From Hormoscilla sp. (GTDB lineage: Bacteria > Cyanobacteriota > Cyanobacteriia > Cyanobacteriales > Desertifilaceae): a DNA stretch of 21,209 nt. The notes under the pieces are model-generated. The model did not search any database. It was given only the letters and a program-made list of their open reading frames with translations, and was not told the DNA's origin. Positions 353 to 21,209 of this stretch are shown piece by piece. Each line of letters opens with the position of its first letter. The first letter of the stretch is position 1. Made by a program: the position numbers and the translations under genes. The stretch is taken from NCBI GenBank assembly GCA_051439505.1, contig JBFRWI010000186.1, positions 1 to 21,209 of the forward strand. Reading direction: 5' to 3'.

Positions 353-1048
353 TCAATTATTCTCTTCTAATTGAAATTGCCGTTGCAACTCTTCATATGT
401 TCCATACTGCCTTAGCAATTCCTCGACATATTTTTTCAGGTCGATGAATAGATTATTGCCTTCGTCATCATATTTGGCCACCCCCTTATCTATATAATAG
501 GTAATTGGCTCTCCAGCACGATCTCTAATGGTGATGACTTCTGCTAATTCTTTAGCTGGGTCATGTTCTGGTAGCAGGGTGACTAATACTTCCTTATTAC
601 CATTACTGTCGGTTAAGCAGTTACCGGGCATGCCATCAGCAACACATAAGATCGGATAATTGTGCAGGTAATCGGTGCCGATGTACCTTAATTTTCCTTC
701 TGTGTGATACTGTTGGAATCTAGCAGATACGTGCTTACAACGAGTTTGGGGGTCGTAGCCCGAAGGAACGAAATGTTCTGTTTGCCACAAAAACATCGGA
801 AAAGTTCCCCGTGAAGTCTTCGCCATTGTAGCTGGCTTCCCGTCCCTTTCTCCACAGATGAATTTGGTTTGGACGATGATTTGGGATGCAGTTTGTCTGA
901 GTGTGGGTTTGGGCGTCGGTGCGGGAGTTGGTGCGGGAGTCGGTGCGGGAGTCGGACTGGTGATGGTTTGGCTAGTTTCGGTCGTGGAACAGCTCACTAG
1001 GCCCGCGATCGCGCACACAAATACTAAAGCTAATGTTCTGGTTTGCAT
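353..1048 (-). CDS. COP23-domain lipoprotein with Pro/Thr-rich linker
   Basis: 231 aa. Hydrophobic leader with lipobox-like LVS-C, then (PTPA)n linker. COP23-type motifs FxC...GKPAT...W...F..SGYDPQTRC..VSARF...G.L.YI...YPILC...C...LVTL. Confidence 0.85.
   Translation of the reverse strand: MQTRTLALVFVCAIAGLVSCSTTETSQTITSPTPAPTPAPTPAPTPKPTLRQTASQIIVQTKFICGERDGKPATMAKTSRGTFPMFLWQTEHFVPSGYDPQTRCKHVSARFQQYHTEGKLRYIGTDYLHNYPILCVADGMPGNCLTDSNGNKEVLVTLLPEHDPAKELAEVITIRDRAGEPITYYIDKGVAKYDDEGNNLFIDLKKYVEELLRQYGTYEELQRQFQLEENN
910..955 (-). repeat. 12-bp coding tandem repeat encoding (PTPA)n
   Basis: GTCGGTGCGGGA / GTTGGTGCGGGA / GTCGGTGCGGGA on the + strand. Confidence 0.85.
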
Positions 1049-1114
1049 AATCGCACCTCTGCTGAAAGTTTATTTAAAATATTGTACTCCGTTCGCAGTG
1101 TACCGCTATCGCGT

Positions 1115-1212
1115 TAAGCTGTCGCGCATTTAAATTGCATGGGCCAAAAAGCTGAAACGATTGTCGATAATGGCTTTCCCCATTTTGAATTTTGAATTTT
1201 GAATTTTGAATT
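1115..1212 (+). repeat. Dispersed ~100-bp element (MITE-end-like head plus ATTTTGA heptamer tail), copy 1
   Basis: TAAGCTGTCGCGCATTTAAATT...GCTGAAAC...TTTCCC followed by (ATTTTGA)x4 at 1182-1209. An inverted homolog lies at 13472-13573. Confidence 0.8.
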
Positions 1213-1214
1213 GC

Positions 1215-2153
1215 TTAATGCCACTCTTCCCAAAATGTCCGCACCGCTATAGCCACCAGAATAGCAATTCCTACGATTACGGGCACTATTAAAATTCTGA
1301 GCAAAACATCAACCCACTCAGGTAGCTTTTTATCATTCTTTGGGTCATCTTGTGGGCGTGGATCCTCAGCTATGGGCTTTTGTAGGACTTCCGGGGCGGT
1401 TACCTTGAGCTTACTCAGCACGGAATACGAAGCCCGATCGCGAAAAGCTTCTATGGAAGTGCCCCTAAATGGTCCAAATAATCTATTTGCTACGAAAATA
1501 CCCACTAATTTGCCATTTTGGTAGAGGATCGGTCCCCCACTCATGCCTGGCTGAATTTGATTCTCGGGAAACTCCAGGGCTAAAGATGTACAGCTACTAT
1601 CTATATCTAGTATTGTTATATATTCCCAATCAATTATTTTTCCAGTTGTAAATTGCTCCCGCGTCCCATCCGCCCAACCAAATAGGTGGGCTCTAGTTCC
1701 CTGATTTGGCTTACTCTCACTTTTTAACTCGATCAGCTTACTCGGACTTTCTAACTCGATCGGGCTATAGGGTCGGTCGCTAGTAAACTGCAACACTGCT
1801 AAGTCTACACATTTCCCTCCGGACATTCTTTCGGCAGTGTTAAGGTTAACTGAGTAGCGTTCGCCATCATGAGTTTTTACTTCATATGTATTATCTTTAG
1901 GGATTACGTGGTCGGCAGTCAAGACATAATAAGTATACTTATCACCCCCGGTCTCTTCCCAACCAATAATTACTCCCGAACCTTCGGGAATCATTTCCTG
2001 AGGGCCGATCACTGTTTCTCTGAGAATTAGCACCGTACTCTCTTGGGCCTTCTTTTTGATATCCGTTATACTTTGCCCCGCTGCTGCTAGAGGCACAGTC
2101 AAGATTACTGTTACCACTAACAAGACTGCTTTCACCCTTAAGGATCTCTTCAT
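1215..2153 (-). CDS. Trypsin-like (S1) serine protease with signal peptide and C-terminal membrane anchor
   Basis: GSGVII, LTADHV (His), DLAVL (Asp), GMSGGP (Ser). Signal peptide ending near PLAAA. C-terminal hydrophobic helix VLLRILIVPVIVGIAILVAIAV. Confidence 0.9.
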   Translation of the reverse strand: MKRSLRVKAVLLVVTVILTVPLAAAGQSITDIKKKAQESTVLILRETVIGPQEMIPEGSGVIIGWEETGGDKYTYYVLTADHVIPKDNTYEVKTHDGERYSVNLNTAERMSGGKCVDLAVLQFTSDRPYSPIELESPSKLIELKSESKPNQGTRAHLFGWADGTREQFTTGKIIDWEYITILDIDSSCTSLALEFPENQIQPGMSGGPILYQNGKLVGIFVANRLFGPFRGTSIEAFRDRASYSVLSKLKVTAPEVLQKPIAEDPRPQDDPKNDKKLPEWVDVLLRILIVPVIVGIAILVAIAVRTFWEEWH

Positions 2154-2155
2154 TG

Positions 2156-3841
2156 CTAGCTACCACCATCTCTAATGTATCCCATACCTTTCAGTAAATT
2201 ATCCAATTGTAGGAAATAATCCTCGCGATCGGGTTCCTCGTAATATACTTCCACTACATTCCAACCCTGCTTTGCTTGACCTAGTAAATGCTTTTCTGCC
2301 AAATAAGCTGCCAATACCCCTTTTACTTCTTCACCCCGTTTGCGTCTCATTTGATAATCTTGCCACAGCTTGACCGTATGCTTGTATACTAGAGCCTTAT
2401 ATTTACTTTCCCGGCTGACATCCAGCATTTTTCCTTGACTGTATCGCCATATTTGCACTGGATAAACTGCATCCTTTTGATTAAATACTCCGGCAAAGTT
2501 TCTGTTCCAGCTTAACAACAATATGCCAGTTGAGTCCTTCTTAAGTTTATATCTGGGTCGCTTGTCTACAGAACCCCAATCATGGATCAGAGGCTTTCCT
2601 ACCTTGCCATCTGCACTATAGCTATATATTAAGGAATAGGCATAGGATATATTTTGTTCGGCAATTAAATCGACAATTACTTCCGATCGCCCATCCCCAT
2701 CTAAGTCTAGTACCTGCAAACCTAGGTCTCGGATCTGTTCTCCTGCATCTATGGGCAGTGAGTCATCCATTAATATCTGATTATTTTCACCTTGCAGCTT
2801 CAGCTTGATGTCTGTGAACTCATCGCCTTTTTTCTGGTAAGATAGCTTCGCTTTCAAATCCTTTGCTGCTGCTTCATTTGGTTCCATAAGCGCTGGTTTG
2901 ATGTCCATACCATTTAACACTATGGGTGGCGCTTGCTCTATAAAGGTGGCAATTGCTATTGCCCAGCTATATTTATTCAGTTGCTCTCGTGGTATCTTCA
3001 CTTCTGCACCATCCTTGTAGTAATAGGGAGCATCCCAGAGGGGCTGATGTTTACCATTAACTCCCACCAGTTCCCCTTGACCATTTAGCAGCGGTCCCCC
3101 ACTCATGCCTTTGTCAATGTTAATTCCATAAGCTACTTGATAGCCCATTTTCAGGGGTTTTTCCAGCACTAGCGTGATATCGCCATTGCGGAACACAAAT
3201 GGAGTTAAATATGGAAACCCTGCTGCAAATACTTGCTCTCCATCTTGCAAGTCGGATAAATTCAGGGTGACGACTTTATAGTCATGTGTGCTGCTAAACT
3301 GGAATAGGGCTAAATCGTCACCTGACTCTATCTCCTCACCTGACTTATCCCGATCGAACCGCTGCAATAGTTCAGCTTTGTGTGCTTTCCCATCGTTGGT
3401 CTCAATTGTATGTTCGTCACCCTCACCGATCACATGTCCATTGGTGAGAACTGTATACCACGAACCTTGCTTGCTGATTATGATTCCCGAACCCGAGGAT
3501 TTTCCCGATCGCACCTTGACAGTAATTTCTCTGGCCAGACTCTCCAACTGCCCTGAATGCTGAGATGCAGGCGATCGCGAATTCCGATATTTTTCTCTTG
3601 CTTTACTATTGATCCCAGTAATAAAATCAACCTTACATACTACAGTATTGCTACCATCTGCTTGAGCGATCGTGCAGGATCTATAGCCGATAAAACCTAT
3701 TGCTGCTAATACCATGCAAGTAAAGAAGCCGCCGCCAAAACCCGATCGCCAGCCCGACCACCATATTTGACCGGTGCTCTGCTGGTTGGGTTGTTGCGGT
3801 TGCTTCTTTTGCTTAATTCGATATGTTGTTCGGCGAGTCAT
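2156..3841 (-). CDS. Membrane-anchored trypsin-like serine protease fused to a C-terminal domain with a DLDGDG (FG-GAP/Ca-binding-like) motif
   Basis: N-terminal hydrophobic segment, GSGIII, LTNGHV, DDLALF, GMSGGP. About 240 aa of C-terminal region contain DLDGDGRSEV. The stop is 2 bp from the next start. Confidence 0.88.
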   Translation of the reverse strand: MTRRTTYRIKQKKQPQQPNQQSTGQIWWSGWRSGFGGGFFTCMVLAAIGFIGYRSCTIAQADGSNTVVCKVDFITGINSKAREKYRNSRSPASQHSGQLESLAREITVKVRSGKSSGSGIIISKQGSWYTVLTNGHVIGEGDEHTIETNDGKAHKAELLQRFDRDKSGEEIESGDDLALFQFSSTHDYKVVTLNLSDLQDGEQVFAAGFPYLTPFVFRNGDITLVLEKPLKMGYQVAYGINIDKGMSGGPLLNGQGELVGVNGKHQPLWDAPYYYKDGAEVKIPREQLNKYSWAIAIATFIEQAPPIVLNGMDIKPALMEPNEAAAKDLKAKLSYQKKGDEFTDIKLKLQGENNQILMDDSLPIDAGEQIRDLGLQVLDLDGDGRSEVIVDLIAEQNISYAYSLIYSYSADGKVGKPLIHDWGSVDKRPRYKLKKDSTGILLLSWNRNFAGVFNQKDAVYPVQIWRYSQGKMLDVSRESKYKALVYKHTVKLWQDYQMRRKRGEEVKGVLAAYLAEKHLLGQAKQGWNVVEVYYEEPDREDYFLQLDNLLKGMGYIRDGGS

Positions 3842-3883
3842 GTGGTTTGGTTAAAATCTTTTCCCTTTTGCGATACACCCTCA

Positions 3884-4480
3884 CTACTCCTGACCAAATA
3901 TCTGCTGTCGATCCTTCCAGTTTGGGGCTCGGGAAAGGAAAGGTTCCACTGCTATGTGGACGCGACCTTGCGCATCTAAGCTATAGGCTGCACGGATGGC
4001 ATGTTCCAGTGGGTTGCTACCACTATCGCGGACTCTTAATAGCTTGACCAGAATTGTATTAGGATTGTCATCTTTTCTCAGAGTCAATAGCAACTCTCCG
4101 GAGTCTTTATTGATGCATGGACCATCTTTCTGTTCCGCCACGCATATTATCGGGTAACCATCCTCTTCTCCCGTGGTTATATACGCCAGCTTTCCTTGTT
4201 GATTGTAATTCTCGAATCTCATGGATACTTCCTGACAGCGCCTTGAAGGAGTCCAGCCCGAAGAACTGAAATATTCTGTTTTCCAGCGGATCAGGGGAAT
4301 GTTTCCCCGCCTGGTCTTAGCTATTGTTGCTGGCACGCCATCAATATCTCTCCCACAGTAGTAGGAGGTGGAGGAGGGGGGTTGAGCCCTTAAATGCTGG
4401 TGAGGGCTGGCCACCACCCCTAGCCCGATCGCCGCGATCGCCCCTGCTATCATCATTCCCAGTGACTTAATTTTGTTCAT
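3884..4480 (-). CDS. Secreted COP23-domain protein
   Basis: Signal peptide, then YYC...GVPATIA...PLIRW...F..SGWTPSRRC.EVS.RF...GKLAYI...GYPIIC...GPC...LLLTL. Confidence 0.88.
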   Translation of the reverse strand: MNKIKSLGMMIAGAIAAIGLGVVASPHQHLRAQPPSSTSYYCGRDIDGVPATIAKTRRGNIPLIRWKTEYFSSSGWTPSRRCQEVSMRFENYNQQGKLAYITTGEEDGYPIICVAEQKDGPCINKDSGELLLTLRKDDNPNTILVKLLRVRDSGSNPLEHAIRAAYSLDAQGRVHIAVEPFLSRAPNWKDRQQIFGQE

Positions 4481-5292: not shown

Positions 5293-5313
5293 GGTGGGCG
5301 GTGCCCACCCTAC
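5293..5313 (-). repeat. REP-like palindrome, copy 2, overlapping the stop codon of the PsbP-like gene
   Basis: ggtgggcggtgcccaccctac. The TAG of its GTAG foot is the stop codon at 5310-5312. Confidence 0.85.
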
Positions 5314-6125
5314 TTGATTTCAAAAGAATCAATCATTGCCTCTACCTCTGTTAGATAATCTTCATATTCACTTGCCTCTGCCGTGTAGGTGATGATGTAT
5401 GCTGAGCGATCGCCCTTTAAGGCAAACAGCTGCATCATTTGCAAATTTTGGCCTTCATTTTCCCCCTCATAGACAATTTTATAGGCATCTGGTTTATTTC
5501 CCAACTCGGTCGCCCCTTGGGAGACCACCTGATAGTTAGAAAAGTCTTGTATTTCCCGCAGCGCTATATTTTTATATGCCTCCAGACTCATCTGTTCTGA
5601 GAATTCCTGAATCGTTATCGTCACTTCTGGGGCCAATTTATTTCCCTTGGCTGGCCCAACAAACCTGGCCACCTCCGTTTCTTTCAGGATGGAATTTTTT
5701 CTATTTATCTTTTCGGGGTTCCAGTCTTCAGGGTATTTTATTTTTAGCTGTTGCTCTGGTTCAGAATAAACCTCTAAAGCTATAATATCGTCTTCTTTCT
5801 TGGAAATTAGAGCTACCAAGGCCCAGATGGCAGCACCCAATGCGATCGCGACTCCCAGGGCGATTAAGATTTTCTGCCATTTATTCCCAGGATCTGTCGA
5901 TAAGATCGTTTTTCCTAAATTCTTGGTCGGCGATGACCCCGATGTTGTTGGTGTGGATACGATTGTTTTCGACACCAGCGATCGCTCCATGGCCTCTCGG
6001 GGCAGGCCGCAAATTACGCAATATCCTCCCGAGTTTTCTTCCGGTTCATGGGGTCCAGTGCCATTGTATGCCCGATCGTTATTTTTCGGCTCGCCATCGC
6101 AGATCCAATTTCCTTGTGGGATCAT
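5310..6125 (-). CDS. Single-pass membrane protein with N-terminal Cys/His (zinc-ribbon-like) segment and C-terminal PsbP/Mog1p-like domain
   Basis: WICDG...H...YCVICG. TM helix ILIALGVAIALGAAIWALVAL. PsbP-like motifs IKYPEDW, LGNKPDAYKIVY, AYIITYTA, MIDSFEI. GGAGG SD before the ATG. Confidence 0.82.
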   Translation of the reverse strand: MIPQGNWICDGEPKNNDRAYNGTGPHEPEENSGGYCVICGLPREAMERSLVSKTIVSTPTTSGSSPTKNLGKTILSTDPGNKWQKILIALGVAIALGAAIWALVALISKKEDDIIALEVYSEPEQQLKIKYPEDWNPEKINRKNSILKETEVARFVGPAKGNKLAPEVTITIQEFSEQMSLEAYKNIALREIQDFSNYQVVSQGATELGNKPDAYKIVYEGENEGQNLQMMQLFALKGDRSAYIITYTAEASEYEDYLTEVEAMIDSFEIK

Positions 6126-6197: not shown

Positions 6198-6974
6198 TTA
6201 CAACTCATACTTATCCTCACAAGGGCCCCATAGCAGATCGGCACAGTTTGGCAAAGAGGATGGTGCAGACGCTGGCACCGGAGCTGGTAATAATCCCAGT
6301 ATATCCATATATCGCCAAATCGTAGCGATCGAAATCCCTTCCCGTTCACTTGTATTTTCTGCACGCAGACCTTTGTGAATTCCCACTAACCGACCCCCCT
6401 GGTCTAGAACTGGTCCGCCACTCATCCCGCCATAGGTTTCATTAGTATATGTCAAAAGATGATTCTCAAAATGACCTCTAACACTTCCTCTTGTAAAAAA
6501 CCGTCTCGCCTCTTCCCCCAAATTCCTCCACCCCATCACGTAAACGTAACTGTCTCTACTTATATTTCGATTGACCCCTATTTCTGCCACATCGTAACTG
6601 CGGTTGCTCGTGAACCTTAATATCGCTAAATCTAGCTCTGGTTCCTTACTGATTATTTCCACATTATAAGTTCTCCTCTCAGACCGCGTTCCGCCAGGGC
6701 CTCTAAGTTTATACGGTTCGATCGTGCGGACAACATGTGCATTTGTGAGCACATAATAGCTGTTGCCTTCCCTTTTAACAATAACTCCCGAACCACGATA
6801 TACAAATTGATTGGGTCGAGTCGGGCTAGCGCTGACAATTTGAACTGTTATTCTTTCAGCAATCTCTTCAATTGCCGATGTTTCCAGACGCCGTGCCACT
6901 ACCGCTTCTGCCTGCATAGTGACAATGGCGGTGGCGCTAACTAATAGAGATGGAATTCTGCCGCTTAACTTCAT
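6198..6974 (-). CDS. Secreted trypsin-like serine protease with C-terminal CX7C tag
   Basis: GSGVIV, LTNAHV, LDLAIL, GMSGGP. Ends LPNCADLLWGPCEDKYEL. ATG at 6974 is preferred over TTG at 6980 because of GGAG spacing. Confidence 0.9.
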   Translation of the reverse strand: MKLSGRIPSLLVSATAIVTMQAEAVVARRLETSAIEEIAERITVQIVSASPTRPNQFVYRGSGVIVKREGNSYYVLTNAHVVRTIEPYKLRGPGGTRSERRTYNVEIISKEPELDLAILRFTSNRSYDVAEIGVNRNISRDSYVYVMGWRNLGEEARRFFTRGSVRGHFENHLLTYTNETYGGMSGGPVLDQGGRLVGIHKGLRAENTSEREGISIATIWRYMDILGLLPAPVPASAPSSLPNCADLLWGPCEDKYEL

Positions 6975-6998
6975 ACTCAATACTCCGCTATCTATACT

Positions 6999-8756
6999 TT
7001 ATTGTGAACAAAGTCCCCAGAGTGTTTCGCTACAACTAGGAAGTTGTTGCTGGGGAGGGTTAGTCCAGGGTTTAGGCTGAGGAAGAATATTCCGGGGTTC
7101 CGAAGTTATACTCGCATCCGAGGAATCCTGCCTAGTTAACAAACTGTAAAACTCTGGTAAACTTACTTGCAAACTGTCGATCGCAATTCCTTCTTTTCCC
7201 CCTTCTTCACCTTTGTGAATAGCAACTAACATACCCTTTTCGTCAAGAACCGGTCCACCTTTCATTCCCCTGGTTTGATTGTTATATTCTACTATATAGT
7301 CTGTCGGCAAATTTCTCTGACTAATTATTTCTGCCTTTGTGAATAGAAATTCCCAGCTTTTCCCTTGACCCATCTTCCAACCGGCAATATAAACATTACT
7401 GTTTTCCTCTAAATCTCTAGCATCTCCCACCAGCGCCACTTCGTCGTTATGGTTGTTAGTGAACTGCAATAAAACTAAGCCTGTACCTGCCCTTCTGATG
7501 TGGTTCAGTTCATATCGCTGCTGGTTGTAACTTACAGAAAACCTGCTACCCTGATTCTCATAATAATAAGAAGGTATTACAGATTTATGAGTGAGGGCGT
7601 AGTAGGTTGTCCCTTGTTGAGCAACGAGGACTCCGGCACCCAAAGTAATGATTTTTTCTGGTGATGATTTGTCGCTGTAACTAACTAAGACTGTGATTTT
7701 CTCTGCCTTGTTTTTAATCTCGCTCTCCGGTAGTATGGGAGTAACGTTAGTTCGAGGATTTGCAGCCTGGGTCCGAGGCTTTAGCGATCCCTGATGATTA
7801 TCTGTTCTCCCCTCCGACGAGTTGTTTTGTACAGTCGCACCTCCGTTCGATCGAGATTGTTGTTCTGCCGGTGGAGGAGTCTGTCTAGTCCTATTCCTTG
7901 GGATGTTTGCCAGTTGTCCTTGATTTAATTCTAGTGAAAGGGGAGCCTGTTGTACAAAGGTCTCGATCGGGATAGCCCAGCTAGAACTGGTCATCACGCT
8001 TAAAGGTTGCTGAACCCTGGTATTATCATCTTGATAGCGATAGATGTCAGGATTCCTAAAAATCAGAGGATCGCCCTTACCGTTGACACCAATCACTTCG
8101 CCCTGTTCGTTCAGCAGCGGTCCCCCACTCATGCCCTGGGCGATATCAATATGGTATCCTATCTGATAGCCCTCTCGCATCGGTCTATCTAAGATCAGCG
8201 AAATTATGCCACCAGGCCACAGACATACCGCCTTGCTACCTATATTTGGTTGTGATAGAGCTGGATTTACTGGAAAGCCAGCCGCCAAGACTTTTTGTCC
8301 CCGTCTCAAACTCGCGTTCGGTGCTAAAATTGCGCGATCGTATTCCTCGGGGCTAAGGAACTGCAATATAGCCAAATCATCACCCCTTGAGTTACGATCG
8401 TCAAAGCGCTTTAATAAAATCGCTTGATAGGTTTTCCCATCAGGGGTCTGAATTTGATAACTGTTCCCGAGCAGCACGTGAGCATTCGTCAACACCGTGT
8501 AGCTTTTTGTGTTGCGCCTTTCTTGTCTTTGTACTATAATCCCTGACCCCCAAGAACCTCCTGCTAGGACTTTTACCGTGATTGCTCTAGCAATGTCACA
8601 GAGCTTTAACTCGGATTTTTCCGTGGCCGAATAAGTAGCAGGGGACTCGTTTTCCGAACCCCCTCGATCCAATGCGATCAAATCAGGGGACTGGGTTAGC
8701 AGCCCGATTAACAAACTACTAACACAGACACCCAAAGTAATTGAACGTTTATTCAT
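6999..8756 (-). CDS. Secreted two-domain trypsin-like protein (active domain plus pseudo-protease domain) with C-terminal CX7C tag
   Basis: Domain 1: LTNAHV / DDLAIL / GMSGGP. Domain 2: LTHKSV / GLVLL / GMKGGP. Ends LPSCSETLWGLCSQ. ATG at 8756 chosen; TTG at 8771 is the alternative. Confidence 0.88.
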   Translation of the reverse strand: MNKRSITLGVCVSSLLIGLLTQSPDLIALDRGGSENESPATYSATEKSELKLCDIARAITVKVLAGGSWGSGIIVQRQERRNTKSYTVLTNAHVLLGNSYQIQTPDGKTYQAILLKRFDDRNSRGDDLAILQFLSPEEYDRAILAPNASLRRGQKVLAAGFPVNPALSQPNIGSKAVCLWPGGIISLILDRPMREGYQIGYHIDIAQGMSGGPLLNEQGEVIGVNGKGDPLIFRNPDIYRYQDDNTRVQQPLSVMTSSSWAIPIETFVQQAPLSLELNQGQLANIPRNRTRQTPPPAEQQSRSNGGATVQNNSSEGRTDNHQGSLKPRTQAANPRTNVTPILPESEIKNKAEKITVLVSYSDKSSPEKIITLGAGVLVAQQGTTYYALTHKSVIPSYYYENQGSRFSVSYNQQRYELNHIRRAGTGLVLLQFTNNHNDEVALVGDARDLEENSNVYIAGWKMGQGKSWEFLFTKAEIISQRNLPTDYIVEYNNQTRGMKGGPVLDEKGMLVAIHKGEEGGKEGIAIDSLQVSLPEFYSLLTRQDSSDASITSEPRNILPQPKPWTNPPQQQLPSCSETLWGLCSQ

Positions 8757-8801
8757 GTCAGATTTCGTCAAGACTTGCGCATGATTGCTGACATTATACA
8801 G

Positions 8802-9398
8802 CTATTTGCAAGGCCCCCATAGTGTTTGCGTGCAAGAGCCTATGTTTTCTGAAGGCCCTCCGACGTTATTCCGCGTCACTCCGATGAAGGTGTCCACATG
8901 CAGAACCTGTTCCCCTCTGGAGTTCCGGAGCAAACCATTCCCAGTTTGAGCGAGTGCGGGTGCGGTTCTGTCGGTATTAACGTTCACCACCTGCTGAATG
9001 ACATCGGAGGGGTTAGCCCAAGGCTTAAGCGTTAACAACATCTCCTCGCAGGGACCGTCTGCGCTGCGTGATGCGCATATCACCCCATATCCGTTCATCC
9101 GACTGGAAACGATATATGTCAAGATTCCTTGACTTTGAGCAGATTGGAATCTGGCGGAAACCGCCTCACAGCGTCTTTGCGGCGTCCAGCCCGAACCCTC
9201 GAAATAATCAGAAGTCCAGCGAATGAATACCACTTCTCCCCGGTCCGGGTGCTTAACTACCGTAGCTGGCACGCCGTTGTTGCTGCTACAGAAGAATTCA
9301 CCGTCGGCGCGGCGGGTTCCTTCAGCATAGCTAGGCAGATGCATGGCTGCACCCATCACCAGCATAACCGCTCCCGACAGTAGTGACCTGATTTTCAT
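8802..9398 (-). CDS. Secreted COP23-domain protein with C-terminal CX7C tag
   Basis: Signal peptide ending PSYA. FFC...GVPATV...IRW.S.YF..SGWTPQRRC.AVSARF...GYGVIC...GPC..MLLTL. Ends IGSCTQTLWGPCK. Confidence 0.88.
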   Translation of the reverse strand: MKIRSLLSGAVMLVMGAAMHLPSYAEGTRRADGEFFCSSNNGVPATVVKHPDRGEVVFIRWTSDYFEGSGWTPQRRCEAVSARFQSAQSQGILTYIVSSRMNGYGVICASRSADGPCEEMLLTLKPWANPSDVIQQVVNVNTDRTAPALAQTGNGLLRNSRGEQVLHVDTFIGVTRNNVGGPSENIGSCTQTLWGPCK

Positions 9399-9534
9399 GA
9401 TTGGTGCCTGTCTCTATAAATTCTCACAAAACATCTTAACAACTTATTGGCTGGCTTGCCCTCGATTATGCATTTTTCATCCCCAGGCTGCAAGTCTGCC
9501 ATTCTCTTGGTTCTGACTGCCAAGGCTGTAACCA

Positions 9535-9789
9535 TTATTGTCTACAATTTCCATAAATTGCTACATCGCAAGGGGGTAAGTCCCGGTTGTCTGCTGGCGC
9601 TTGCTGGTCTGGAAGAGGTGGATCTGGTGGAAATGGCTGCTGAACCGGTGGTACGCTATCTTTGTCCTGCTGCCTCAAAAGATTAATCCAGTTTGGCAGA
9701 CCCTCAATGATGGCCGCTATAATGACAGCAGCTGCACCCACAATTATTGCGATCACCTGAAGTTTCTCGCTCCGCGTCCATCCGTTCAT
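9535..9789 (-). CDS. 84-aa single-pass membrane micro-protein: TM helix, Pro/Gln linker, CX7C tag
   Basis: TM LQVIAIIVGAAAVIIAAII. C-terminus PADNRDLPPCDVAIYGNCRQ is homologous to the kinase C-terminus. Co-oriented within the cluster, with GAGAG upstream of the ATG. Confidence 0.8.
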   Translation of the reverse strand: MNGWTRSEKLQVIAIIVGAAAVIIAAIIEGLPNWINLLRQQDKDSVPPVQQPFPPDPPLPDQQAPADNRDLPPCDVAIYGNCRQ

Positions 9790-9867
9790 TATACTCTCAC
9801 CACGCGACCGACATACTACATACTACTACAAATCCGCCTATAGCCACCGGTTGTCAGGGGACTCTGG

Positions 9868-11430
9868 CTATTCTTCGCAATTACCGAAGATGGCTACACT
9901 ACAGGACGGTAAGTCCTGGTTGTCTGGTGGCCCTTGCGATCGCCTCTTCTCGATCTCCCCATCAATGCTATCTAGTTCCCGATTGTATTGCGCAACTTTA
10001 GCAGATGTTCCCCTATTATATGCTAGGCTATCTGTAGGAATCTGTGTTAGTTTCTCGATCGCCTGAATCAACTTAGCTCTAGCACCCTCAAGTTGGGATA
10101 TATTTTTAGCAGCAGCATAGTCTGACTTTGCCTCGTGTGCGATCGCCTCAGCCTCATTCAAGAGTTGCTGTGCATTTTCCTCAGACGTCAGACGCCCATT
10201 CATTCTTCTGAGCTGACCTTCGTATGCTGTTAATAAACTCTCCGCTTCTGAGTATACTGGGGAACTTCCTGGAATCTTTTGCAACTGAGCGATCGCCTCT
10301 TGCATGCGCTTGCGTTCCCGATACAATTCTGCTAATGTTTGGGCATTATCAAATCTAGTCCGAGCAGACTCAGCTTGGTCTTTGGCCTCATCGATCGCCT
10401 GGCGATCTTTCTCATTCCCTTCAACCTTTCCTGATGGTGGATTATCGCCCAACCCTTCTATAATTGTGGGGACAAATGTGGGGACAAATGCTATGGCCGA
10501 GACTGCGACAATGCCCAGGACGATCGCCCCAGCAATTGTATAAATCCCTACTTTAGAAGTTGTCTGCCCTGGGGAGGAAACAACGGTAGTTCCAGGTTGA
10601 TTTTGCAAAGGTATGATAGCTTGCAGGGCCTCTGTTGCCGACTGATAGCGTTGACGGCGATCGCGACTCACCATGCCATCCAATACCTCTGCCAGATCGT
10701 CGGAGACCTGCGCTTTCTGCCGCCACATAATTTCATCCGTCTTCGGGTCTGGAAGCAGCCGATCGGGAGCCAGACCGGTCAAAGCTTGGATCCCGATCGC
10801 CCCCACAGCATATACATCGCTGCTCAAATGGGGGAAACCTTCAATTTGTTCAGTGGGCATATAGCCCGGAGTACCGATCATAACAGTGCGAGACCCCGGA
10901 CTATTAATCCCTCCAGCCGTAACTTGCTTGACCGCCCCAAAATCTATCAACACCAACTTCCGATCTTTATGGCGGCGAATGATATTTTGCGGCTTAATGT
11001 CCCGATGCACTACATTGCGACTATGGACAAATTCTAGCACCTCTAATATTTCCGATACAAGGGCGATCGCTTCTTCGGATGGCAGCCTGCGATCGGGCAA
11101 TAATTCATCACTCAAAGGATGTCCGTCAATAAATTCTTGCACGATATAGAACTCGCCCTCTTCCTCAAAATAGGCCAGTAGCCGAGGAATTTGCCGATGT
11201 TCTCCCAAAGTTTCTAAAGTTTCCGCCTCCGTTGTAAACAAGCGTCGGGCCGTCTGCCTAATTTGAGGATCCGGGTTAGCAAGGTGTAGTTGCTTGACCA
11301 CGCATTTGGGCTGACCGGGGCGCTTAGTATCTTCCGCTAGATAGGTTTGGCCAAAGCTACCTGCACCCAGGGGGGCCGTGACTTGGTAACGTCCATCTAA
11401 AATTTGTCCGATTTTTCCGGAACGGTTCAT
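9868..11430 (-). CDS. Hanks-type transmembrane Ser/Thr protein kinase with extracytoplasmic helical repeats and C-terminal CX7C tag
   Basis: LGAGSFG, VVK, HRDIKPQN, DFG, GTPGYMPTE. TM IAGAIVLGIVAVSAIAFV. Repeats AIAQLQKIPGSSPVY / AIEKLTQIPTDSLAY. Ends DLPSCSVAIFGNCEE. Confidence 0.95.
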   Translation of the reverse strand: MNRSGKIGQILDGRYQVTAPLGAGSFGQTYLAEDTKRPGQPKCVVKQLHLANPDPQIRQTARRLFTTEAETLETLGEHRQIPRLLAYFEEEGEFYIVQEFIDGHPLSDELLPDRRLPSEEAIALVSEILEVLEFVHSRNVVHRDIKPQNIIRRHKDRKLVLIDFGAVKQVTAGGINSPGSRTVMIGTPGYMPTEQIEGFPHLSSDVYAVGAIGIQALTGLAPDRLLPDPKTDEIMWRQKAQVSDDLAEVLDGMVSRDRRQRYQSATEALQAIIPLQNQPGTTVVSSPGQTTSKVGIYTIAGAIVLGIVAVSAIAFVPTFVPTIIEGLGDNPPSGKVEGNEKDRQAIDEAKDQAESARTRFDNAQTLAELYRERKRMQEAIAQLQKIPGSSPVYSEAESLLTAYEGQLRRMNGRLTSEENAQQLLNEAEAIAHEAKSDYAAAKNISQLEGARAKLIQAIEKLTQIPTDSLAYNRGTSAKVAQYNRELDSIDGEIEKRRSQGPPDNQDLPSCSVAIFGNCEE

Positions 11431-11618: not shown

Positions 11619-12566
11619 CTAATCAGCTTGACCAAACCGCTGCAATAGTTCCTCCCGGGATAATCTCAGCAGTAATGGTACTAACTCTCCCGATTGTAAA
11701 GCCAACAATGGCTCAATAATTCCTGTTAGTTCTTCATCCAACTCTCCAAAGCGCACTCCGAGCAAATCTTCTATCGTAGCGCGACGGCCCTGTTGAATTC
11801 CCTGTTGAATTCCCTGTTGAATTCCTCGCTGCTCTCCTTCACGGATTGCTTGTTCTCGGTCTTGCTGATAAAGTGGTTCTAATCGCATAACTAACTCCAG
11901 GTCCGATGACTCTAAATTCTCTGACTTTTGCCTCAGTTGCAAATTTTGCTGCAAGTTATACAGCAACTCCAAGGCTGTTGACCGCAAGGGGTTGTCCGGA
12001 GATAGACTCTCCAATTCATCAATGGCCTCTTTTTGCACCCCTCCTCGTCCCAGCAGCCTCAACCAGAGGGTTTCTGGCGTGGGGGGTAGCTGATGAATGA
12101 CTACGATCCCAGTTCTCCCATAAACTGGCAGAAAGTGCATTCCCGGCAGCCAGTCGGCATCGGCTGTCGCACCAAAGCCCGACAATATCCTCTCCGATGC
12201 TGTCGGCGTCAGGATCCATAATATTTGTAAGTCATCCTCAGGAAGGTCAGGAAGGTTGTTTTTCTTCCGGGCTGCTTCTCGCTTGGCTTCTGTAATTGCC
12301 AGTAACAATTTTAACCTACAAGAGCGGATTTCGTCAACCGTGACGGGGTTGCGGAATGACTCAAACAGAGAGCGGTTCGCTGCCATCCGCCCTAATAAAC
12401 CTAGGTCGCGATGGAGCGCTGCCAGCTTTTCTGGGTTGGGAATGAACCACCCATCTATCTCTAGCATCTCTGATATGATTTTACGGGCCGCTATGAATTC
12501 CCCGTATGGTCCGAGAAACCTATCTAAATAGTCTTTGGCGAATTTGTCGAACAGTAATCTGGTCAT
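11619..12566 (-). CDS. Rpn/YhgA-like PD-(D/E)XK-fold cyanobacterial protein with (QQGI)n coiled-coil tail
   Basis: N-terminus FDKFAKDYL, then EIDGWF and LFESFRN motifs, ETLWLRLLG, and EGEQRGIQQGIQQGIQQG before an RFG-containing helical tail. Confidence 0.75.
   Translation of the reverse strand: MTRLLFDKFAKDYLDRFLGPYGEFIAARKIISEMLEIDGWFIPNPEKLAALHRDLGLLGRMAANRSLFESFRNPVTVDEIRSCRLKLLLAITEAKREAARKKNNLPDLPEDDLQILWILTPTASERILSGFGATADADWLPGMHFLPVYGRTGIVVIHQLPPTPETLWLRLLGRGGVQKEAIDELESLSPDNPLRSTALELLYNLQQNLQLRQKSENLESSDLELVMRLEPLYQQDREQAIREGEQRGIQQGIQQGIQQGRRATIEDLLGVRFGELDEELTGIIEPLLALQSGELVPLLLRLSREELLQRFGQAD
11789..11825 (-). repeat. 12-bp coding tandem repeat (GIQQ)x3
   Basis: CCTGTTGAATTC repeated three times on +. 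Confidence 0.85.
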
Positions 12567-12753: not shown

Positions 12754-13413
12754 CTAAGACAGCAACTCCAAGGCAGTTGACCGCAAGGGGTTATCGGTGG
12801 AAATATTCTCCACTTCTTTGATGGCCTTTTTTTGGATTGATTCTGGGCCCAGCAGCCTCAACCAAAGGGTTTCTGGCGTTTGGGGTAGCTCATCGATCGC
12901 GACTATAGCAGTGTGGAAAAAACGTGCCATCAAATATATTCCCGGCACCCATTTTTTATGAGGATCGGCACCAAAGCCAGACAAAGTACTGGTCATCGCT
13001 GTATGTTTCAGGATCCATAAGTTTGGTAAGTATGATTCAGGGAACTTTATCTTATGCCGCTTCTCGAACCGATGGATCTCTTCAAAAACCATCAATAATT
13101 TTGACATACTCTCCCGGATTTGACAGTTTTTTTTCAACTGAATTCCCTCCTGGATTTCCTCCTCTGTTTTATACAAACTTTTATCTAATTCGACTTCTGG
13201 CAATGGATCGAACACGCAGCTCTTTGCTGCCATGCGTCCTAATATGCCTAGATCGCGACGGAGTGCTGTTAGATTTTGGGACTTGGGGATAAACCACACA
13301 TTCTTTTTTCCTTCTTCTAAGAAGATTCTCTGGCACACCATCACTTCCCCGTAACCTTCCAGAATCTTGCCTAAATAGGATTTGGCGAATTCGGCATCAA
13401 AATTTTGATTCAT
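12754..13413 (-). CDS. Truncated, divergent paralogue of the 11619-12566 gene (possible pseudogene)
   Basis: Shares FAKxYL, WFIP, RDLGxLGRMAA, LWIL, LSGFGA, TPETLWLRLLG and DNPLRSTALELL, then stops. Lacks ~110 C-terminal residues. Confidence 0.75.
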   Translation of the reverse strand: MNQNFDAEFAKSYLGKILEGYGEVMVCQRIFLEEGKKNVWFIPKSQNLTALRRDLGILGRMAAKSCVFDPLPEVELDKSLYKTEEEIQEGIQLKKNCQIRESMSKLLMVFEEIHRFEKRHKIKFPESYLPNLWILKHTAMTSTLSGFGADPHKKWVPGIYLMARFFHTAIVAIDELPQTPETLWLRLLGPESIQKKAIKEVENISTDNPLRSTALELLS

Positions 13414-20883: not shown

Positions 20884-20999
20884 GGGTGTGGTCAAAAGTC
20901 GTTGCGTAGGGTGGGCACCGCCCACCAGAAGCGGGCTTGGGGAAAATTTAAACACACAGTTGACAATAGCAGATGATGGGGTGTGGTCAAAAGTAGTTG
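20884..20999 (+). repeat. 21-bp direct repeat pair enclosing REP-like palindrome copy 5
   Basis: GGGTGTGGTCAAAAGT(C/A)GTTG at 20884-20904 and 20979-20999. GTAGGGTGGGCACCGCCCACC at 20906-20926. Confidence 0.75.
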
Positions 21000-21012
21000 A
21001 TAGTCATTTGTT

Positions 21013-21084
21013 GCCCTTCGGCCCTTCGGCCCTTCGGCCCTTCGGCCCTTCGGCCCTTCGGCCCTTCGGCCCTTCGGCCCTTCG
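21013..21084 (+). repeat. Perfect 8-bp tandem repeat (GCCCTTCG)x9
   Basis: Counted directly from the sequence. Confidence 0.95.
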
Positions 21085-21085
21085 G

Positions 21086-21209
21086 CTCACGCTCAGGGAC
21101 CACTCACGCTCAGGGACCACTCACGCTCAGGGACCACTCACGCTCAGGGACCACTCACGCTCAGGGACCACTCACGCTCAGGGACCACTCACGCTCAGGG
21201 ACCACTCAC
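21086..21209 (+). repeat. Perfect 17-bp tandem repeat (CTCACGCTCAGGGACCA)x7+, runs off the window
   Basis: Seven full units at 21086-21204 plus a partial unit, with no spacers. Confidence 0.95.

Follow-up and report, generated by a model that had tools for sequence, protein, structure and literature searches.

Why do five neighbouring genes, whose products belong to four unrelated families, all end in the same short Cys motif? This question is raised by a 21,209-nucleotide stretch of Hormoscilla sp. DNA (contig JBFRWI010000186.1, positions 1 to 21,209 of the forward strand; the whole stretch is called the window here), in which five consecutive open reading frames (ORFs) on the minus strand terminate in C-x3-[LI]-[WFY]-G-x-C, followed by one to six residues and the stop codon. 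The carriers of this tag are a membrane Ser/Thr kinase, an 84-amino-acid (aa) membrane microprotein, a COP23 protein, a two-domain S1 protease (P2) and a small S1 protease (P1). A first-pass annotation of the DNA had noticed the motif from the letters alone; we checked the loop coordinates of all five tags by translation, and the observation was confirmed, with all five ORFs on the minus strand ending as described. Judged by sequence comparison, kinase-COP23-S1 clusters in many cyanobacterial genera have tails that are common to their unrelated members; there are several types of such tails, and the tag is one of them.

Identification of the tag in the window and its genome

The C-x7-C spacing was found in 5/5 window tags, and the Cys, Gly and Cys positions were invariant in the aligned tails (n = 11), so the constant spacing claimed earlier held. 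In the same alignment, loop positions 2-4 and 8 were variable, while the first Cys, the hydrophobic-aromatic-Gly core and the second Cys were constant. To place the motif in its genome, all stop-to-stop ORFs of at least 50 aa in the 6.47-Mb assembly (n = 51,201) were scanned for C-x3-[LIVM]-[WYF]-G-x-C-x(0-8) at the C-terminal end. Only six of the 51,201 ORFs matched, and five of these were the consecutive window genes, which bears out the idea of an operon-wide tag; any C-x7-C close to the end, by comparison, was present in 576/51,201. The sixth match was an 83-aa ORF on contig C111, ending at 29026 (+), and is probably due to chance. The paralogues of the same families in another cluster of the window (cluster A), which had been said to lack the tag, indeed gave no match either in their ORF translations or in the genome scan.

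The Cys, Leu and Gly codons of the tag are unlike between the gene copies, so the tags are not recent DNA copies of one another and their likeness is held at the protein level. The differing codons also ruled out recent gene conversion as the origin of the similarity. Taken with the retention of the Cys, Gly and aromatic positions in the kinase, COP23 and microprotein orthologues, they point to selection on the tag.

The tag always lies C-terminal to a transmembrane (TM) helix or a signal-like segment, at the end of a segment that is left disordered in structure models. That every tag lies beyond a signal peptide or TM helix is clear for the kinase and the microprotein, which have one distinct TM helix each; for COP23, P1 and P2 it follows only from reading the N-terminal hydrophobic segments. 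The low-complexity Pro/Gln/Gly linker, which had been described as preceding every tag, holds in part: in COP23 and the kinase the linker is short and has no long Pro/Gln tract. The five genes belong to a co-directional minus-strand run of six with intergenic gaps of 18-136 bases, and a promoter and terminator scan gave results near the shuffle expectation.

Cluster-specific tails in other cyanobacterial genera

We then examined 33 fetched loci from other genera, 13 of them centred on kinases and 20 on COP23; related genomes among them are not independent, and the counts are descriptive. For the kinase-centred sample, the kinase was searched in 401 genomes of the order and the regions of its best matches, 14 in all, were fetched; L097 was left out for having no COP23 or S1 neighbour (its kinase has no W/F end). 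Among the ORFs of at least 100 aa in these 13 loci, a terminal W or F was found in 8/13 kinases, 9/13 COP23 and 2/19 S1 proteins, and in 12/103 other ORFs, several of which lie within the clusters. When only one locus per genus was kept, the corresponding values were 5/8, 6/8, 1/12 and 8/67. In the COP23-centred sample (20 loci, 20 genera), W/F ends were present in 9/22 COP23, 9/29 S1 proteins, 3/5 kinases and 11/136 other ORFs. The background of W/F ends in the Hormoscilla genome itself was 263/5077 ORFs. A crude regular-expression survey of that genome gave a C-terminal W in 5/75 kinase-, S1- or COP23-like ORFs and in 75/5077 overall, but its COP23 expression was poor and it is superseded by the two locus samples. 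COP23 itself was matched in 136 of the 401 sampled genomes.

Three kinds of tail were found to be common to unrelated members of kinase-COP23-S1 clusters, namely [VIL]-[WF]-COOH, C-P-P-[IL]-L-C and other CX7C loops. In a sister genus of the same family (L112), a COP23, two S1 proteases and an HExxH protein, encoded by four consecutive genes, all end in [VI]-W, and in L084 the ends L-F, L-W, E-W or V-W occur on 5/6 consecutive genes. Three COP23 and a kinase in L110 (5818-9751), again 4/4 consecutive genes, all end in C-[PS]-P-[IL]-L-C; the same tail is present on two COP23 in L026 (362-3946), and between them lies a kinase whose tail is related and Cys-rich, with four Cys compared with two in each COP23. 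L103 contains tails ending in WF and WW and, on a P1-like protease, a CX7C loop with W-F. The tail types thus co-vary within clusters, since the members of L112, L084, L110, L026 and L103 share the tails of their own cluster. Analogous sharing of tails with a hydrophobic-aromatic core was seen in L084, L085, L091-L093, L103 and L112, beside the 5/5 genes of the window.

Several minor variants were also recorded. The HExxH protein of L112 (8437-9393), a putative metalloprotease of 318 aa, carries the I-W end of its neighbours. A G-x-R-E-L end is found on COP23 and a 513-aa S1 protein of one cluster in L089 (8602-11617) and L090 (6828-9888), where the kinases end in G-C-P-D-F-C; a COP23-like ORF of 477 aa in the Hormoscilla genome (C84:7598-9031) also ends in G-x-R-E-L. 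S1 proteases in L095 (7183-8157) and L096 (6714-7739) have a C-x4-C tail and lie beside a 240-aa protein ending in C-x-Y-V-P.

Related tails on more distant kinase homologues

The kinase ectodomain with its tail (aa 321-520) was searched by phmmer against 1.84 billion representative proteins, which gave 371 hits at E <=0.001, and the best 150 of these were inspected. The window pattern was present in six of the 150, one of them (P0015) with 75% identity and the other five with 28-44%. Another six had other C-x(n)-C tails, some of them clearly related, and nine had a terminal [LV]-W. In most of these nine the end read P-[LV]-W-COOH, and a further P-[LV]-W-G lay inside the protein some 20 residues before it. 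The kinases of L087 and L088, from the order-wide search, combined both forms in a C-P-L-W-G-...-C loop, followed in one of them by a terminal P-L-W. Thus, the notion of a feature limited to this operon or genus had to be given up, because the same loop ends more distant kinase-ectodomain homologues; as far as the protein sequences tell, the tag is older and wider than the genus. Since the homologues have loop, linear and combined forms, their common denominator would be a hydrophobic-aromatic pair followed by Gly or a free carboxylate, with the Cys pair as an optional bracket. This hydrophobic-aromatic(-Gly) element is also found where there is no Cys at all and therefore seems a likelier functional core than the Cys pair.

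Conservation among relatives of Hormoscilla

A profile of the tails was run on 14 genomes of the family, in which only the Hormoscilla genome itself and 4/4 congeners matched, with one match per congener, on the kinase orthologue. In 401 genomes of the phylum, the profile gave 12 foreign matches at E 0.002-0.05, of which one, a 56-aa ORF, fitted the pattern, which is at chance level. The profile contains linker columns and is therefore probably insensitive to diverged tags. The remainder of the tagged cluster is deleted or broken in the congeners. The four sponge-associated ones (G003-G006, loci L010-L013) lost it through different deletions: L010 has a chimeric ORF in which the start of COP23 is joined to the end of a cluster-A protease, L011 has a split kinase, and in G006 the tail persists in a 52-aa frame.

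A large protein collection contained five tagged orthologues or fragments of the kinase (P0010-P0013 and P0015), and a near relative of the window kinase, P0018, with a ...SLW end in place of the loop. The COP23 tag was kept in 2/8 relatives, P0002 (77% identity) and P0003 (69%), and absent from the six at 49% identity or less. The microprotein orthologue P0020 (79 aa, 74% identity) kept the tag, and P0021 is a broken remnant whose tail is broken too. A scan of genome contigs with COP23 gave 16 loci, the best at 34% identity and none with a CX7C tag, and a scan of metagenome contigs with the kinase gave 12 loci at no more than 55% identity, none tagged. A word-based search with the tail alignment returned no new tagged protein family among 8000 scored candidates.

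Structure models and complex prediction

The AlphaFold2 (AF2) monomer model of P1 had a mean predicted local distance difference test (pLDDT) value of 75.1, with the tail (234-260) below 50. In the model of COP23 the domain reached a pLDDT of about 86-97 over aa 31-130; its tail was again below 50 and was not docked on its own domain. A Foldseek search of the COP23 fold against the PDB gave no match at E <=0.001, and the best result of a wide VIA-align search was a PH-like fold with Z 5.3 over 47 residues, within the stated noise range of the tool.

One pair was modelled as a complex, P1 (aa 30-236) with the last 45 aa of the kinase, together with three controls. The prediction passed with a score of 0.63, compared with 0.00 for the best of the three controls; this mark is reached by 116/157 solved complexes and 2/215 mismatched pairs. 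The runs agreed in at least 73% of contacts, and the pLDDT of the partner was at least 57. In this job the kinase helix was cut out of its domain, and the partner alignment was homologous there only for the kinase rows. The complex prediction supports a possible contact between two members of the module, not a role of the tag.

A module-internal recognition tail as the favoured reading

We lean, with moderate confidence, towards reading the tag as a module-internal periplasmic recognition or docking tail. It would belong to a family of short tails at the C-terminus that mark the exported parts of Ser/Thr-kinase/COP23/S1-protease modules, and would be the local member with a Cys bracket. After export, the two Cys would close a nine-residue disulfide loop and display the hydrophobic-aromatic-Gly core on a flexible tether, and a second protein of the module would capture the loop in trans through a peptide-binding site. 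The kinase, the microprotein (as a TM-plus-tag mimic of the kinase), COP23 and both proteases could thereby be held together at the membrane, or be presented to the proteases. The genome has a second module with W-COOH tails, and the Cys bracket would set the tail of this module apart from them.

As the receptor we would tentatively name the substrate cleft of a trypsin-fold domain (P1, the active domain of P2 or its dead domain), a choice that may well prove wrong. It is favoured because aromatic-Gly and aromatic-COOH, that is P-L-W-G inside and P-L-W-COOH at the end, look like a chymotrypsin-like substrate and its product; because aromatic tails, by reading of the loci, nearly always accompany S1 genes while the non-aromatic C-P-P-[IL]-L-C occurs without S1; and because the dead protease domain of P2 could bind without cutting. 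In such a cleft the aromatic residue would be the P1 site and the Gly the P1' site of the substrate, and the disulfide would either prevent the loss of a cleaved loop or give the loop the character of an inhibitor. A bolder extension, which we think unlikely, would make hydrophobic-aromatic tails a periplasmic address code of filamentous cyanobacteria with one tail type per module: a chymotrypsin-like module protease would read hydrophobic-Trp followed by Gly or a free carboxylate, the window loop would be a disulfide-held pseudo-substrate on every component, and the module would be a self-inhibited proteolytic switch that gates the transmembrane Ser/Thr kinase, with the microprotein as decoy.

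Several observations weigh against a recognition tail read by a protease. Binding by the tag is hypothetical. In the complex prediction, the confident interface on the kinase 45-mer comprised residues 7, 10-12 and 14-23, which form the last ectodomain helix; on P1 it comprised 133-138, 172-173, 218-219, 222-223 and 231-235, the C-terminal helix region, away from H82, D117 and S187. The tag residues (35-43 of the 45-mer) were not among the confident contacts, their placement being uncertain rather than excluded. The congeners G003 and G005 have kept an intact tagged kinase though their other tagged genes are deleted, and the searches found no orthologues of P1 or P2, hence no tagged ones. Both window proteases are tagged, yet S1 proteins elsewhere are mostly untailed (tailed in 2/19 and 9/29 in the two samples). 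There was no S1 gene in the fetched DNA of L026 or L110, the two clusters with C-P-P-[IL]-L-C, and no family is common to every tailed cluster.

The tails might instead couple to each other without any receptor domain, by intermolecular disulfides or by joint metal binding in the manner of a zinc hook or clasp, which would join kinase, COP23, microprotein and proteases covalently. Each window tag has exactly two Cys, which are the sole Cys of P1 and of the microprotein, and the second, unrelated Cys tail on 4/4 genes of L110 and on two COP23 of L026 has no S1 gene nearby; the four Cys of the L026 kinase tail against two in each of its two COP23 neighbours, and the co-variation of tails within clusters, would be expected if tails pair. 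We still regard such coupling as quite improbable, since most related tails are Cys-free and what they share is the hydrophobic-aromatic(-Gly) core, and where an exported protein has Cys in even number and close together, a single internal disulfide is the simpler explanation. Docking to a receptor of the module that is not a protease seems rather unlikely to us as well. The candidates would be the PsbP-like ectodomain (5310-6125), the COP23 domain as a scaffold, and the helical kinase ectodomain or TPR-like regions as a reader of the carboxylate-clamp type. Among the six genes of the run only the PsbP-like one has no tag, and paralogous kinases carry a PsbP_2 ectodomain, so the kinase and the PsbP-like domain are probably linked in function; COP23 occurs in almost every tailed cluster, frequently two or three times, and several S1 proteins of the modules end in sequence that reads as TPR-like. 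However, PsbP-like genes were detected beside few other tailed clusters (apart from kinase fusions, the phmmer labels of both samples show none), and COP23 is absent from the fetched DNA of L087, L088 and L094.

A sorting or secretion signal read by machinery encoded elsewhere, for export through the outer membrane or attachment to an envelope layer, would resemble the known C-terminal sorting domains with an invariant Cys. Terminal aromatic residues are typical of the C-termini of outer-membrane proteins, which the aromatic tails recall; the C-terminal position after a low-complexity linker on exported proteins would also fit, as would the lack of a receptor family common to all tailed clusters. 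We nevertheless consider such a signal very unlikely, because two carriers are integral membrane proteins with an N-proximal TM anchor, only five proteins of the genome carry the tag and all are from one operon, a general machine would not require tails to co-vary within clusters, and NCBIfam gave no match. There is also no hydrophobic segment or Arg cluster past the motif, while the known Cys-bearing signals are tripartite (Haft 2023). Least credible to us is a released cyclic peptide signal, which would be the disulfide-closed tail, cut off by the module proteases and sensed by the kinase. The cluster does encode both proteases and a receptor-type kinase, and the small loop, with its predicted disulfide, sits at the end of a flexible linker; but five large functional proteins, the kinase and both proteases included, would then all be precursors of nearly the same peptide, and many of the tails are only two or three residues ending in W/F that cannot be such ligands.

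Comparison with known families and systems

The tails were compared with protein-family collections and with named systems that use short C-terminal signals. No sorting-domain family of NCBIfam matched the whole tagged proteins (E <=0.1), and none of its families matched the five 45-aa tails (E <=10). Pfam had no model covering the tail in the whole proteins, and again no family for the five tails (E <=10). The earlier remark that the motif could not be recognised as a described sorting signal is in line with these screens. The absence of a TM helix plus basic tail was borne out as well: past the second Cys there are only one to six residues, with neither a hydrophobic stretch nor a cluster of basic residues. 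These tails were not found described in the open-access literature on COP23, on C-terminal sorting signals and exosortase, or on C-terminal tryptophan and periplasmic serine proteases.

PEP-CTERM, MYXO-CTERM and their relatives, among them the Cys-bearing C-terminal sorting signals, consist of a signature motif, a TM segment and an Arg-rich cluster (Haft 2023). The Cys-bearing signals resemble the window tag in being short C-terminal signatures on exported proteins, with an invariant Cys in the signature, that were found by sequence pattern; they differ in that nothing follows the window motif, there is one tagged operon per genome, and no NCBIfam model matches. Another comparison is with the HtrA-type protease DegS, whose PDZ domain reads the Y-x-F-COOH tails of outer-membrane proteins. 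Here, too, short hydrophobic-aromatic C-terminal motifs on exported proteins are tied to trypsin-fold periplasmic proteases, and the W/F-COOH tails of related modules come closest to them. However, P1 and P2 have no PDZ domain (Pfam detects only Trypsin_2/Trypsin); the aromatic residue of the window tag is internal, followed by Gly and bracketed by Cys, and the proteins end in one to six more polar residues without a free aromatic C-terminus; and the tails are common to all members of one gene cluster, proteases included.

Bowman-Birk inhibitors and SFTI-1 have a disulfide-closed reactive loop of nine residues, with the P1 site at position 3 and the pattern Thr-P1-Ser-x-Pro-Pro. The window loop has the same C-x7-C spacing, would be a constrained loop that a trypsin-fold protease could bind like a substrate, and is encoded alongside such proteases, but its sequence is unrelated, with no Thr-P1-Ser-x-Pro-Pro, the aromatic residue is at loop position 6 rather than 3, Pfam gives no match, and binding is hypothetical. 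Dockerin-cohesin pairs and the effector-associated adaptor domains of bacterial conflict systems append one module to many proteins of a system for assembly on shared partners. A common module on many different proteins is what the tag has in common with them; theirs, however, are folded domains of about 60-100 residues, compared with a motif of 9-14 residues that has no recognised receptor. The ligands of TPR carboxylate clamps, EEVD-COOH and the PTS1 signal SKL-COOH, are likewise very short motifs after a flexible linker, and some module proteases have putative TPR-like sequence by reading. These ligands sit at the free C-terminus, however, which the window tag does not, and Pfam detects no TPR domain in the window cluster.

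Novelty and significance of the tail family

Short C-terminal recognition tails are a known concept; what is new here is this family of sequences, the fact that whole clusters share it in one of several variants, and the form bracketed by Cys. With no database model and no open-access description, the tail family is apparently undescribed. COP23 is an abundant, clock-regulated envelope protein of cyanobacteria for which, to our knowledge, no function is known, and a single genome has many clusters in which its gene lies with those of secreted S1 proteases and membrane Ser/Thr kinases. A tail on every exported member of a cluster is a direct experimental handle: it predicts contacts, it can be deleted or transplanted, and the proteases can be challenged with synthetic versions of it. 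If the tails are a recognition code with cluster-specific variants, they would be a new way to insulate paralogous periplasmic signalling modules from one another, and would add a class that is not tripartite to the catalogue of bacterial C-terminal tags. If the self-inhibited proteolytic switch and its address code were true, long-unexplained COP23 would gain a concrete role.

The genes of the run and their neighbours

All genes of the run, and those of cluster A, are on the minus strand. The run opens with the Ser/Thr protein kinase (9868..11430, 520 aa; Pkinase PF00069, E 1e-36), which has a cytoplasmic kinase domain, one TM helix (aa 298-316), a helical ectodomain of about 170 aa, a short linker and the tag, whose Cys-bracketed nine-residue loop (aa 510-518) lies at 9877..9903. 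The microprotein follows at 9535..9789 with a TM helix at aa 10-28, a Pro-rich linker and the tag; the loop (aa 74-82; 9544..9570) holds its only two Cys, and its tail is closest to that of the kinase, with 14/22 residues identical. The COP23-domain protein (8802..9398, 198 aa; PF14218, E 9.5e-36) is a member of its family, with 123 bits against a gathering cut-off of 27. It has a signal-like N-terminus, whose hydrophobic segment predicts export, then four domain Cys and the tag (loop at aa 189-197; 8808..8834).

Protease P2 (6999..8771, 590 aa) matches Trypsin_2 PF13365 in two stretches (E 2.9e-31). Its first trypsin-fold domain has His, Asp and Ser motifs at 94, 132 and 213 and would be active by these motifs. 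In the second (aa about 370-560, window 7266-7900), Lys replaces the catalytic Ser (motif at 502) and the Asp motif is missing, so that by its motifs this domain is a degenerate pseudo-protease; of the two domains it is the one closer to the P1-type enzymes. It is followed by a Pro/Gln linker and then by the tag (loop at aa 580-588; 7008..7034). P1 (6198..6980, 260 aa; PF13365, E 4.9e-24) has an intact catalytic triad, H82, D117 and S187, then a Pro/Ala linker and the tag, after which six residues remain; both Cys of the whole protein sit in the loop of the tag (aa 246-254; 6219..6245). By motifs and domain comparison, the S1 proteins of these modules are of two types, P1 being an active second type and P2 an active first type fused to a dead copy of the second. 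The N-termini of both proteases are signal-like, and export is predicted from their hydrophobic segments.

The last gene of the run and its sole untagged member encodes the PsbP-like membrane protein (5310..6125; PsbP_2 PF18933, E 3.9e-12), with a Cys-containing cytoplasmic N-terminus, a TM helix (aa 86-104) and a PsbP-like ectodomain. PsbP_2 also forms the ectodomain of paralogous kinases in a congener (L010:14150-15637) and in the Hormoscilla genome itself (C2:12092-13570), which gives a fusion link between the kinase and the PsbP-like protein. Beyond the run, the ORF and Pfam scans placed the untagged paralogous cluster A at 353..4480, with a COP23, an S1 protease with a C-terminal TM helix, a 561-aa S1 protein and another COP23. 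At least nine COP23 genes were counted in the Hormoscilla genome, together with several COP23-S1(-kinase) clusters; one of these, on contig C2, contains the kinase-PsbP_2 fusion and two W-ended members. A natural S1-COP23 fusion protein was also found (P0004), which gives a link between these two families.

Between the tagged cluster and the remainder of the window lie two adjacent paralogous minus-strand ORFs, at 11619-12566 and 12754-13413, which have N-terminal and mid-protein sequence in common. At both window ends (20888-21209 and 87-299), the ORF translations contain short tandem peptide repeats, which indicate repeated DNA.

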